Below are positions 1,952-13,127 of a stretch of 64,000 bases of DNA, one piece after another. The DNA is from Alphaproteobacteria bacterium (lineage in GTDB: Bacteria; Pseudomonadota; Alphaproteobacteria; UBA828): positions 1,024,001 through 1,088,000 of the forward strand of contig CAXXMU010000001.1 of the NCBI GenBank assembly GCA_963667785.2, written 5' to 3'. How positions within the stretch are numbered: the first letter of the stretch is position 1; each line of letters begins with the position of its first letter. Both the position numbers and the translations under genes were made by a program. A model generated the notes under the pieces. The model saw nothing but the letters and a program-made list of their open reading frames with translations. It had not been told where the DNA came from and made no database searches.

Positions 1952-2392
1952 TCACCAGCTCCCGGTATTGGGCATGCTCTTCCACGGCTCGGCCGGCGCG
2001 AGCGGCTTGCCCTTCTGCAGCAGCTCGATCGAGATCCCGTCCGGCGAGCGGATGAACGCCATGTGGCCGTCCCGGGGCGGCCGGTTGATGGTGACGCCCT
2101 TCTCGTGCAGGCCGGCGCAGATCTCGTAGATGTCGTCCACGCGGTAGGCGAGATGGCCGAAATTGCGGCCGCCGCCGAGCTCCTCCGGGTCCCAGTTGTA
2201 GGTGAGCTCGACCAGCGGCGCGTGGTCCTGCTTCGCCCTAGCGACGTCGCCCGGCGCGGACAGGAAGATCAGGGTGAAGCGGCCCTGCTCGCTCTCGTAG
2301 CGCGTGGTCTCCACCAGGCCGAGCTTCGCGCAGTAGAAGTCGAGCGCCTCGTCCAGGTCCGTGACCCGCACCATGGTATGCAGATACTCCAC
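1952..2392 (-). CDS. gloA: Lactoylglutathione lyase (glyoxalase I, VOC family)
   Basis: [48 protein letters not shown] upstream of GTG. Confidence 0.9.
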
Positions 2393-2422
2393 GCGTCGTT
2401 CCTCCTTCGTCGTCGGGCGGGC

Positions 2423-3097
2423 TCACTCCGCCGCAGGCGCGAGCAGCGGCAGCGCGCGCAGGGCGGCACAGGCCGCGCCGTAGCCGTTGTCGATGTTGAC
2501 GACCGCGACGCCTGGCGCGCAGGAGCCGAGGATGGCCATGAGCGCGGTGGCGCCGCCCTGGGCGATACCGTAGCCCGTCGAGGTCGGCACCGCGATCACC
2601 AGGCCGGGCACGAGGCCGCCCACCACCGAGGGGAGCGCGGCATCCATGCCGGCCGCGACGATGACGATGGGGAAGGCCCTGATCTCGTCGATCCTCTCCA
2701 TCAGGCGCCACAGGCCGGCGACGCCCACGTCGCCGATCTCCACCGCGGGGTGGCCGTGATAGGCGAGGGTGCGGGCGGCCTCGCGGCTCACCGGCTGGTC
2801 GGAGGTGCCGGCCGAGACGATCGCGACCCTGGTCTCGCCCGCAGGCGCGGCGACCTCGCCGAAGAAGCCGGTCCGCGACAGCGGCTCGTGGTCGATGCGG
2901 CCGGCGAGTTCGGCCGGCAAGGCTTCGCGCTGGGCCTCGTCGAGGCGCGTCAGCAGCAGGCTCACGCCGGCCTCGTCCGCACGGCGGAGGATGTCGGCGA
3001 GCTGCTCGTCGGTCTTGCCGGCGCAGAGCACGGCTTCCTCGATGCCGAGGCGGGCGCGGCGCTCCAGATCGAGGGTGATGGCGGTGGGCGTGCTCAC
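2423..3097 (-). CDS. larB: Nickel-pincer cofactor biosynthesis protein LarB (PurE/AIR-carboxylase-like)
   Basis: LDLERRARLGIEEAVLCAGKT, SAGTSD.PV..EA, DVGVAGLWRL, AGMDAALPSVVGGL, AVPTSTGYG, VNIDNGYGAA; GTG start at 3097 overlaps larE stop (GTGA). Confidence 0.9.
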   Translation of the reverse strand: MSTPTAITLDLERRARLGIEEAVLCAGKTDEQLADILRRADEAGVSLLLTRLDEAQREALPAELAGRIDHEPLSRTGFFGEVAAPAGETRVAIVSAGTSDQPVSREAARTLAYHGHPAVEIGDVGVAGLWRLMERIDEIRAFPIVIVAAGMDAALPSVVGGLVPGLVIAVPTSTGYGIAQGGATALMAILGSCAPGVAVVNIDNGYGAACAALRALPLLAPAAE

Positions 3098-11854: not shown

Positions 11855-11891
11855 GGGGCGCGTGGCGCCGGCTGCGCCATCGGCGTCAGCC

Positions 11892-13127
11892 TCAGTCCCG
11901 GCCGTCCTGCGCCCAGCCGGGGATCAGGCGGTTGGACGGCAGCGTCTCGTCCGCCGCCTTGCGCGCGGTCTCTGCGCCGGCCACGGGCAGCCCGTCCGCC
12001 TCCAGCAGGCCGACCTGCACCAGCACCGAGGCCTGGTCCCAGTAGATGTGCTCGTGGTGGACCCTGCCGCCGCGGAAGGCGACGATCGCCACCAGCGGCA
12101 CGCTGACCGTCCTGCCCGTGGGCGCGACGCCGGGGAGCATCCAGTCGATCTCCTCGTCGTGGGTGAAGCTGAAGATCAGCTCGTCCACCACGCGGTCCGC
12201 GCCGACGGTGCGGGAGAGGGGGGTGAGCGCCGTGTCCTTCGGCATCTTGGGGATGAAGTGCTCGGCGTAGAAGCGGCTGAGCGCGTCCGCCCCCGTGCCG
12301 CCGGTCATGGTCGGGATGTGGTTGACGTAGGGCTCGGCTACCATGGTCGCCATGGTCGCCGCCGTGTCCCGCCCGGTGAACTCGTGGTGCAGGTGGCCCT
12401 CCCACAGCGACTCAAGGTCGTAGGCCGGGCCGATGGCGCGGCGCAGCAGGGCGATGGTGCGCGAATGCGCGATCATGGCCGACGGCCGGTGGTAGACGTC
12501 GCTCCGCGCGTGGTTGTAGAAGGCGTGATCGACGCCGGGATAGACGTGGATCCTGATCTCCGGCCTCCCGGCGAAGTGGGCCGAGACGGCATCCACGGCG
12601 GCCTGCGGCACGAAGGAATCCTCGCCCGCGAAGTGCATGAGCAGGGGACAGGCGATGCCGCCGGATTCGTCCAGCGCCTCCTCGATGCCGACGCCGTAGA
12701 ACGAGACCGCCGCGTCCACCTCGTGGCGGGCGGCCGTGAGGTAGGCGAGCTTGCCGCCGAGGCAGAAGCCCATGGCGGCGACGGGACCTGAGCATTCCGG
12801 CCGCGCCCTGAGCGCCGCCAGCGCCGCGCCGATGTCGGACACGCCCTGGTCCACGTCGAAGCGCGCGTAGAAGTCCAGGGCCTTGGCGAAATCCTCCTCG
12901 CCGTAGCCGAGATCGACGCCCGGCTCCATCCGCCAGAAGAGATCGGGCACGAGGCAGACGTAGCCTTCCTCGGCGTAGAGGTCGGCGACCGCGCGCAGGC
13001 TCGCATTGACCCCGAAGACCTCCTGCTCGATCAGGAGGCCCGGCCCGCGGCCCTCCTCCGGCACCGCGAGATATCCGCTGAACCCGCCGCCGCCGGCGAC
13101 GGCGATGTCGACCATCGTACCTGCCAT
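11892..13127 (-). CDS. Dienelactone hydrolase fused to C-terminal SnoaL/ester-cyclase-like domain
   Basis: QEVFGVN, GFCLGG (Cys nucleophile), YPGVDHAF; second domain WEGHLHHEF..TMATMV.EPYVNHIPTMTGG..HEHIYWDQASVL. Confidence 0.85.
   Translation of the reverse strand: MAGTMVDIAVAGGGGFSGYLAVPEEGRGPGLLIEQEVFGVNASLRAVADLYAEEGYVCLVPDLFWRMEPGVDLGYGEEDFAKALDFYARFDVDQGVSDIGAALAALRARPECSGPVAAMGFCLGGKLAYLTAARHEVDAAVSFYGVGIEEALDESGGIACPLLMHFAGEDSFVPQAAVDAVSAHFAGRPEIRIHVYPGVDHAFYNHARSDVYHRPSAMIAHSRTIALLRRAIGPAYDLESLWEGHLHHEFTGRDTAATMATMVAEPYVNHIPTMTGGTGADALSRFYAEHFIPKMPKDTALTPLSRTVGADRVVDELIFSFTHDEEIDWMLPGVAPTGRTVSVPLVAIVAFRGGRVHHEHIYWDQASVLVQVGLLEADGLPVAGAETARKAADETLPSNRLIPGWAQDGRD

Follow-up and report, generated by a model that had tools for sequence, protein, structure and literature searches.

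A furoate-type hmf operon packed onto nickel-pincer cofactor genes in an alphaproteobacterium, with probable LarA-family clients encoded elsewhere in the genome

The DNA analysed here (the window) is a 64-kb stretch, C1:1024001-1088000, of the alphaproteobacterial assembly G000 (4.09 Mb, 14 contigs, about 72% G+C). Between positions 1952 and 13127 it carries a unit in which genes of the hmfABCDE type, named for the 2-furoate pathway, are packed translationally onto larC, larE and larB and are preceded by a gene for a lactone-hydrolase/SnoaL fusion. LarB is a carboxylase/hydrolase of nicotinic acid adenine dinucleotide (NaAD), LarE an ATP-dependent sulfur insertase and LarC the protein of nickel insertion; their product is the nickel-pincer nucleotide (NPN). 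An earlier note on this DNA had described the unit as a furoate-type operon running into lar genes that lack a larA client. The genes, in window positions, are these:

11892-13127, minus strand: dienelactone-hydrolase plus SnoaL-like fusion (DLH/SnoaL), 411 amino acids, first gene of the unit (PF01738 152 bits; PF12680/PF07366)
9452-11854, minus strand: hmfA-like large subunit of a molybdenum (Mo) hydroxylase, 800 amino acids (MoCoBD_1 227, MoCoBD_2 225, Ald_Xan_dh_C 101 bits)
9218-9424, plus strand: hicA (PF07927 48 bits, cut-off 27)
9018-9221, plus strand: hicB (PF15919 27.4 bits, cut-off 27; PF21748 31 bits)
8044-8871, minus strand: hmfB-like FAD-binding subunit (PF00941 138 bits; PF03450)
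7535-8047, minus strand: hmfC-like [2Fe-2S] subunit (PF01799 98.5 bits; PF00111)
5972-7531, minus strand: hmfD-like AMP-forming acyl-coenzyme A (CoA) ligase (PF00501 230 bits; PF13193)
5184-5975, minus strand: hmfE-like crotonase-family protein (PF00378 163 bits)
3908-5176, minus strand: larC, fused LarC1 and LarC2 (TIGR00299 180 bits; NF052512 102 bits; PF01969 315 bits)
3094-3915, minus strand: larE (TIGR00268 230 bits; CXXC-C motif)
2423-3097, minus strand: larB (NF033503 246 bits)
1952-2392, minus strand: gloA-like gene for a glyoxalase-I-like VOC protein (PF00903 65 bits; TIGR00068 103 bits, under its cut-off of 120)

Gene order and every junction distance in the earlier note were borne out by the open reading frame (ORF) lists and the junction sequences. 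hmfB and hmfC overlap by 4 bp, hmfC and hmfD are 3 bp apart, and hmfD and hmfE again overlap by 4 bp; a gap of 7 bp separates hmfE from larC, larC overlaps larE by 8 bp and larE overlaps larB by 4 bp, and gloA follows larB after 30 bp. The gloA-like gene is not a conserved member of the unit, as no homologue followed larB in the related loci examined from the window's genus (g1; sister genera are labelled g2, g4, g7 and g8, and the order set comprises 48 other genomes). A promoter and terminator scan of positions 1700-14200 returned nothing exceeding shuffled controls.

Pfam recovered all three subunits of a xanthine-dehydrogenase-family Mo enzyme (large, FAD and 2Fe-2S), the AMP-forming ligase, the enoyl-CoA hydratase (ECH)-type protein and the DLH/SnoaL fusion, and the genes stand in the order A-B-C-D-E, with the CoA ligase and the crotonase-family HmfE adjoining, apart from the hicBA pair between A and B. 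No NCBIfam equivalog was available for the hmf-type proteins of the window. A PLSDB protein search with the large subunit returned 35 plasmid records at 60-80% identity, and on plasmids of Cupriavidus pinatubonensis and Azospirillum oryzae the match is the first of five genes (large, FAD and 2Fe-2S subunits, AMP-binding protein, enoyl-CoA hydratase). Gene order in the window matches these clusters, and the five encoded proteins are 53-70% identical to their counterparts: HmfA 64% to C. pinatubonensis and 68% to A. oryzae, HmfB 53-56%, HmfC 69-70%, HmfD 61-63% and HmfE 67-69%. The plasmids compared are from C. pinatubonensis HN-2 and A. oryzae KACC 14407, strains other than the furoate growers. 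C. pinatubonensis JMP134, which carries hmfABCDE alone, grows on furoic acid, as does A. oryzae COC8 (PMC8091172, in part). A review holds furan degradation to be predictable from moderate similarity together with a neighbourhood of ligase, Mo enzyme and thioesterase, with a threshold of at least 40% similarity to HmfA, HmfD and HmfE and a lowest confirmed HmfA identity of 54% (PMC3223595, in part). The hmf label, and with it the furoate-type reading proposed earlier, is therefore well supported by homology, since five colinear proteins share 53-70% identity with clusters from species that have furoate-growing strains.

Within its own genome the window HmfA is at most 35% identical to the six paralogues placed in our tree (33-35%); more than 15 paralogous CoxL-type Mo-hydroxylase sets were seen in the 4.1-Mb genome by tblastn with the window subunits. 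The Mo subunit was rejected as a CO dehydrogenase, as the best NCBIfam match reached 448 bits against a cut-off of 950 and the CSFR motif is missing. HmfD has FadD13, feruloyl-CoA synthetase and 4-chlorobenzoate-CoA ligase as its closest solved structures, and HmfE is the 2-oxoglutaroyl-CoA hydrolase of the Hmf scheme. By likeness to that scheme, 2-furoate or a close heteroaromatic 2-carboxylate would be activated to its acyl-CoA, hydroxylated on the ring by the Mo enzyme and converted to 2-oxoglutarate. The lactone hydrolysis step of the furoate route is described as 'spontaneous or catalysed' (PMC3223595, in part), and the DLH/SnoaL fusion is a candidate for the lactone hydrolase and tautomerase, opening the lactone and carrying out the tautomerisation.

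The lower pathway of Cupriavidus basilensis HMF14 and its relatives, which leads from 2-furoate to 2-oxoglutarate, is encoded by these five families in identical order. Unlike the classical clusters, the window has no adjoining LysR or AraC regulator, major facilitator superfamily transporter or XdhC; instead DLH/SnoaL precedes the hmf genes, larCEB follows them and hicBA interrupts them. HmfA itself differs in length: in g8 (for example G015, L134:5241-8207) it has at its C terminus a CoxG/SRPBCC domain, about 190 amino acids long, that the 800-residue form of the window and of g1 lacks, and the Cupriavidus and Azospirillum large-subunit genes (L224 and L225) are about 200 codons longer than the window hmfA.

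LarB scored 246 bits against NF033503 (cut-off 175), LarE 230 against TIGR00268 (150) and LarC 180 against TIGR00299 (90), with the LarC2 part at 102 against NF052512 (50), all above the equivalog cut-offs. Each is present in a single copy, so the operon holds the sole NPN biosynthesis set of the genome. Equivalogs of LarB, LarC and LarE stand with larA in the lar operon of Lactobacillus plantarum, where they make NPN for LarA-family proteins; in the window, by contrast, the operon has no larA, LarC is a single fused gene and the set is embedded among catabolic genes. LarE has the PP-loop SGGVDS together with C97xxC100 and C174, the CXXC-C motif that defines the [4Fe-4S]-dependent, non-sacrificial type, whereas the L. 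plantarum enzyme is the sacrificial type with a single cysteine (PMC9283937, in part).

Within the 64-kb window there was no match to Lar_N (PF09861). A profile search of the whole genome gave four, all outside the window:

C2:701594-702880: canonical LarA (LarA_C2), Lar_N 194 bits
C1:233069-234481: divergent LarA (LarA') copy 1, 471 amino acids, PF09861 110-113 bits (cut-off 23.3)
C12 at 19 kb: LarA' copy 2, Lar_N 113 bits, 94% identical to the C1 copy
C6:134388-135761 (L091:9422-10762): weak Lar_N-like protein, 26 bits

The statement that the lar genes have no larA client thus holds for the window and fails for the genome, which encodes a canonical LarA and two divergent copies. LarA_C2 aligns with the structure 5HUQ over the motifs DxxR, GLH, EPH...SGGRK, FHS and YQxxK, and scores 321 bits against the broad-spectrum LarA of Isosphaera pallida (9EID) with all catalytic residues retained; against NF033504 it reaches 333, under that model's cut-off of 460. 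Its orthologues (55-66% identity) share a locus with larCEB in 23 of 73 more distant LarC loci. A conventional NPN client therefore exists in the genome, and the puzzle of lar genes without a client dissolves at that level. The canonical larA elsewhere that the earlier note had named as telling against a special tie to the pathway is thus present, and its suggestion of a distant LarA supplied with NPN is correct within its limits. The C6 protein is probably not an NPN enzyme; the SGGxK motif is absent by eye, and its gene lies between those for a SnoaL_3 protein, a thiamine-pyrophosphate enzyme and a Rieske oxygenase. Contig C12 (26 kb) mirrors C1:224-244 kb, both carrying OYE/FadH-like, DUF1330, LarA', small ORF, ABM and GMC genes, with most proteins 84-95% identical and DUF1330 at 65%; the C12 copy may have arisen by genuine duplication or may come from another strain binned with the first (reported contamination 6.6%).

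LarA' belongs to the LarA superfamily by its Lar_N score and represents a large and highly conserved subfamily of 1164 proteins at E <= 1e-10, from sources whose names include Gaiellaceae, Thermoleophilia, Competibacterales and metagenome-assembled genomes of Pseudomonadota; the query shares 70-93% identity with the 27 other members aligned. The roles of LarA residues are taken from PMC11770544 and PMC7583248: R75, K184 and H200 bind NPN (PMC11770544), K184 as the covalent tether and H200 as a nickel ligand. In an alignment of 21 LarA' members with canonical LarA, numbered after 5HUQ, all three were retained in every member. The catalytic acid/base pair H108/H174 and K298 are gone. H108 is replaced by V in 17 and I in 4 of the 21, while in all 21 H174 is N, followed by an invariant His-Trp, Y294 is F, Q295 is H and K298 is W, leaving a rebuilt site with new invariant histidines at 175 and 295. 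HMMER alignments to Mar2 and to the I. pallida LarA agree with these replacements.

A near precedent is a LarA subfamily with one catalytic histidine (group 17 of Desguin 2020; LarA_Bw and LarA_Sp, PDB 9Q2U and 9Q3J), in which H174 is Asn with H108 kept, and K184 and H200 are as in LarA' (PMC12611868, in part). LarA' goes beyond these proteins in having lost H108 (V/I) and K298 (W) as well, matches the two structures weakly (E 5e-11 and 2e-9), and has Mo-hydroxylase and CoA-ligase genes as neighbours where the one-histidine LarAs have glycolytic or sugar genes. The LarA' motifs were absent from the 354-sequence dataset of PMC7583248, as represented by about the first 416 characters of each entry, and from the part of the PMC11770544 supplement examined. 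The Mo-hydroxylase, CoA-ligase and hydratase COG numbers searched for were likewise absent from both supplementary files of PMC7583248 and, within the portion of its context table examined, for groups 1-22.

In G000 each LarA' copy, on C1 and on C12, is followed by a gene for a small CxxC protein with invariant P-C-x-x-C and E-P…A-A-x-R motifs. It has no Pfam match; Atlas gives DUF1858 at 0.77, which we treat as a lead only. A search for longer proteins containing this domain gave 48, of which, by BLASTP, 26 also hold parts of LarA' and 11 parts of the Mo large subunit. Nearly all are singleton clusters, several with patchy matches, and may be either real fusions or merged gene calls, so we count them as further adjacency only.

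Adjacency of hmf and lar genes is not peculiar to this genome: DLH-hmfABCDE-larCEB is present in all 16 other g1 genomes with sufficient contig. In g4 the unit is split, hmfD-hmfE-larCEB lying on one strand and DLH-hmfA-hmfB about 8.6 kb off on the other, at the end of the retrieved stretch. Orthologous hmfABCDE (61-74% identity) occurs in g8 without lar genes behind it. In G015 of that genus the LarA' and small-protein pair is convergent with hmfE and ends 13 bp from it (LarA' 80% identical), in G020 the pair is 4.2 kb from the hmf cluster, and in G018 LarA' (71%) is divergent from, and 121 bp away from, the Mo gene of a paralogous cluster whose Mo subunit is 49% identical. The genes for larB, the small protein and LarA' are adjacent in G012. 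Across the 48 order genomes, at thresholds of at least 70% identity for LarA' and at least 49% for the HmfA-like protein, both were found in 25, LarA' alone in two, the HmfA-like protein alone in two and neither in 19; as these genomes are related, no statistical test was applied to the pattern.

A metagenome scan with LarA' as query returned 80 loci. Of these, 66 extend 400 bp or more beyond LarA', and 61 of the 66 have the small ORF behind it. Twenty loci were treated as informative, their LarA' being less than 90% identical to that of G000 and their downstream sequence at least 4 kb long. A Mo large subunit was seen in 17 of these, and in 15 it shared at least 45% identity with the one in the window; lar genes occur in eight, and Mo genes, lar genes or both in 18, the exceptions being L160 and L161. 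The arrangement varies. L153 reads larA'-small-Mo-FAD-FeS-ligase-ECH-larB-larC-larE; L199, L213 and L223 read larA'-small-(larE-larC-larB, reversed)-Mo-FAD-FeS-ligase-ECH; and L206 reads Mo-ligase-ECH-larA'-x-larB-larE-larC. In a quick IQ-TREE tree the Mo subunits of LarA' loci form one clade with those of the window, g8, Cupriavidus and Azospirillum (SH-aLRT 99), the six G000 paralogues falling outside, and among the more than 15 Mo paralogue sets of G000 the HmfA-like one alone recurs beside LarA'.

Other genes also recur in these loci. Upstream of LarA', about ten of them have a Liv-type ABC transporter together with UPF0261 and a gene of PEP-hydrolase type; an amidase gene is present in five, directly after the hydratase in L157 and L223, and also stands beside hmfE in G021, which has no LarA'. 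In L185 and L190 a GlcD-like FAD oxidase gene comes after the small ORF, three loci have a gene for a PfkB kinase, and a FadH/OYE-like reductase gene is divergent from LarA' in g1 and g4.

The window holds, by homology, a genuine hmfABCDE-type operon together with the only lar genes in the genome. We consider it probable that these lar genes supply LarA-family proteins encoded at a distance, and that the junction of hmf and lar genes derives from a module of LarA', NPN and Hmf-like genes. Because LarA' with its small protein, larBCE and the HmfA-like Mo, ligase and ECH genes form one neighbourhood elsewhere, the window can be read as a rearranged fragment of that module, and LarA' would be the reason why the lar genes sit behind hmfE. 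The earlier note's idea of an unrecognised NPN step tied to the pathway gains clear support from the linkage of LarA' to Hmf-like clusters and larBCE in sister genera and metagenomes. A bolder proposal, which we advance as possible rather than probable, is that LarA', its active site rebuilt, is no racemase but a nickel-pincer enzyme which, with the CxxC protein, would transfer hydride on a feeder compound or intermediate of heteroaryl-CoA catabolism that depends on a Mo-hydroxylase. The reaction, the most speculative part of the scheme, would probably be a hydride transfer other than classical two-base racemisation on a compound entering or leaving the Hmf-type route; our best guess at the substrate is a C5 2-hydroxy or 2-oxo acid or a lactone-derived intermediate.

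Several observations weigh against tying LarA' to the operon. The C1 copy is about 790 kb from the operon in G000, and its upstream region shares no 10- to 14-mer with those of DLH or hmfB. Searches for LarA' found none in 72,556 plasmid records and, at E <= 1e-60, none in 400 sampled genomes of the phylum, although HmfA is encoded in 35 of the plasmid records (60-80% identity) and in five of the genomes (62-64%). As classical hmf clusters do without it, LarA' must be dispensable for classical furoate catabolism and could serve only an accessory or variant step. Because LarA' was the query that yielded the metagenome loci, these show what neighbours LarA' has, not how frequent LarA' is beside Hmf-like clusters. 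In g8, moreover, larCEB stands behind a different operon, in G013, G016 and G019, which have no LarA', and in G020, which has it. That operon (L236/L015 of G020, L237, L242, L243 and L244) runs through genes for an ECH, an acyl-CoA dehydrogenase, a ligase, a thioesterase, RidA, an uncharacterised protein and a member of the tryptophan-2,3-dioxygenase (TDO) family to DLH/SnoaL, a 3-hydroxyacyl-CoA-dehydrogenase-like (HCDH) gene and larCEB. In G006 larC comes straight after DLH/SnoaL, and in four g8 genomes a single gene stands between the two. From these arrangements, the placement of lar genes in the family may track DLH/SnoaL rather than hmf, and the oldest linkage may be DLH/SnoaL-larCEB, with hmfABCDE lying between them in g1. 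The g8 TDO-DLH/SnoaL-HCDH-larCEB genes are in their own right a second catabolic operon with NPN genes and no LarA inside. L015, titled 'uncultured Rhizobiaceae bacterium', was dismissed as an independent lineage, being 100% identical to G020:C4 of the window's own family.

One explanation for these data is that the lar genes merely hitch-hike: they would serve LarA_C2, a short-chain 2-hydroxyacid racemase, with no tie to furoate, and their position would reflect synteny within one genus. The intact catalytic residues of LarA_C2 and the occurrence of its orthologues with larCEB favour this view, as do two further points: 39 of the family's 43 genomes have LarB, among them members of genera that lack LarA' or HmfA, and the DLH/SnoaL-(HCDH)-larCEB arrangement in g8 and g2 points to an older DLH-larCEB unit into which hmfABCDE was inserted. 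We nevertheless regard it as rather unlikely, for it leaves unexplained the recurrence of LarA', larBCE and HmfA-like genes in varied arrangements, in g7, g8 and 18 of the 20 informative metagenome loci, and the near-matching presence of LarA' and the HmfA-like protein within g8 (both in five genomes, HmfA-like alone in one, LarA' alone in none, neither in four). The derivation of the junction from a LarA', NPN and Hmf-like module is the reading we retain.

Another possibility is that the cofactor is used by an enzyme outside the LarA family, in or beside the operon, such as the DLH/SnoaL fusion or a dehydrogenase-like neighbour. The analogy is with NphT, an NPN-dependent hydride transferase of the aldo-keto-reductase fold that came from mining larBCE clusters without larA and extends NPN chemistry beyond racemisation (PMC13524815, in part); its fold differs from that of the candidate client here, a LarA-fold protein encoded elsewhere in the genome. 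The closeness of DLH/SnoaL to larC in G006 and g8 would suit such a role, but no lar or hmf gene lies within about 9 kb of any of ten DLH/SnoaL orthologues (53-60% identity) in sampled genomes outside the family, so that DLH/SnoaL is not favoured as a cofactor user and was rejected as a general lar-linked client. With LarA-family clients present in G000 as well, we judge an enzyme of this kind to be very unlikely. Another proposal, that the ligase and the Mo-hydroxylase have as substrate a carboxylate of pyridine or of another N-heterocycle related to NaAD, the NPN precursor, we likewise hold to be very unlikely. Weak hints in its favour are that the A. oryzae plasmid (L225 3521-8621) has NAD-salvage genes (isochorismatase family, nicotinate phosphoribosyltransferase, NAD synthase and NMN adenylyltransferase/Nudix) upstream of, and on the opposite strand to, its AraC-hmfABCDE cluster, with a Liv-type ABC transporter downstream of the hmf genes, and that genes for amidases, isochorismatase fusions and amidohydrolases are found repeatedly around LarA'. 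Against it stand the colinearity and 53-70% identity of the window proteins with clusters of furoate-growing species and the hydrolase of the window, which is a lactone-type DLH and not an amidase.

To our knowledge, 2-hydroxyacid racemases and epimerases were until recently the only nickel-pincer enzymes known, and a search for other users of the cofactor is now under way in the field. LarA' is a concrete candidate for new nickel-pincer chemistry, with binding residues kept, catalytic residues lost, a fixed small partner and a recurrent neighbourhood. If the proposal is right, nickel-pincer and molybdenum-cofactor chemistry would belong to a single conserved pathway shared by this alphaproteobacterial family and soil bacteria resembling Actinomycetota, and the accessory step suggested for the breakdown of furan or other heteroaromatic acids could be relevant to lignocellulose detoxification. 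The case also indicates that a larBCE cluster without a nearby larA need not imply a client outside the LarA family. Our literature searches, whose scope was papers outside paywalls, found none that links a cluster of Mo-hydroxylase and CoA-ligase genes to lactate racemase or to the nickel-pincer cofactor; as far as they show, the association of a rebuilt LarA subfamily, a small CxxC protein, NPN genes and HmfABC-type genes is not in print.

The hicBA pair had been correctly placed between hmfA and hmfB but assigned to the minus strand; both genes in fact lie on the plus strand. As two small neighbouring genes, HicB-like and HicA, that overlap by 4 bp, they form a type II toxin-antitoxin (TA) module, convergent with hmfA (27 bp between stop codons) and divergent from hmfB (146 bp), and by lying on the opposite strand it splits the unit into DLH-hmfA and hmfB...gloA. 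Full-length hicBA, antisense to hmf, occupies the same junction in three further members of the genus (G039, G038 and G048), while G036, G041 and G040 have a hicB match alone, shortened in two of the three (L008, L123, L125, L126, L128 and L129 are the loci bearing hicBA or hicB). No hicBA match was seen at the junction in the remaining related loci examined, and in three of these (L009, L011 and L014) the gap between hmfA and hmfB is 5-23 bp. hicBA is thus a polymorphic TA insertion that splits a catabolic operon.

Two further TA pairs are close by, making three modules within 7 kb: a higB/higA pair at 13274-13880 (plus strand), between the DLH gene and an Fe-alcohol dehydrogenase gene, and a PIN-domain toxin with a FitA-like ribbon-helix-helix antitoxin at 15152-15846 (minus strand). 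The Fe-alcohol dehydrogenase, 4-hydroxybutyrate-dehydrogenase-like at 345 bits (under the cut-off), is encoded divergently from the DLH gene. Beyond, at 17003-21738 (plus strand), a D-2-hydroxyacid dehydrogenase gene is followed by one for a fused, oxoprolinase-like hydantoinase A/B of 1255 amino acids, and two large ORFs at 22865-26685 (plus strand) may be a second, split hydantoinase-like pair.

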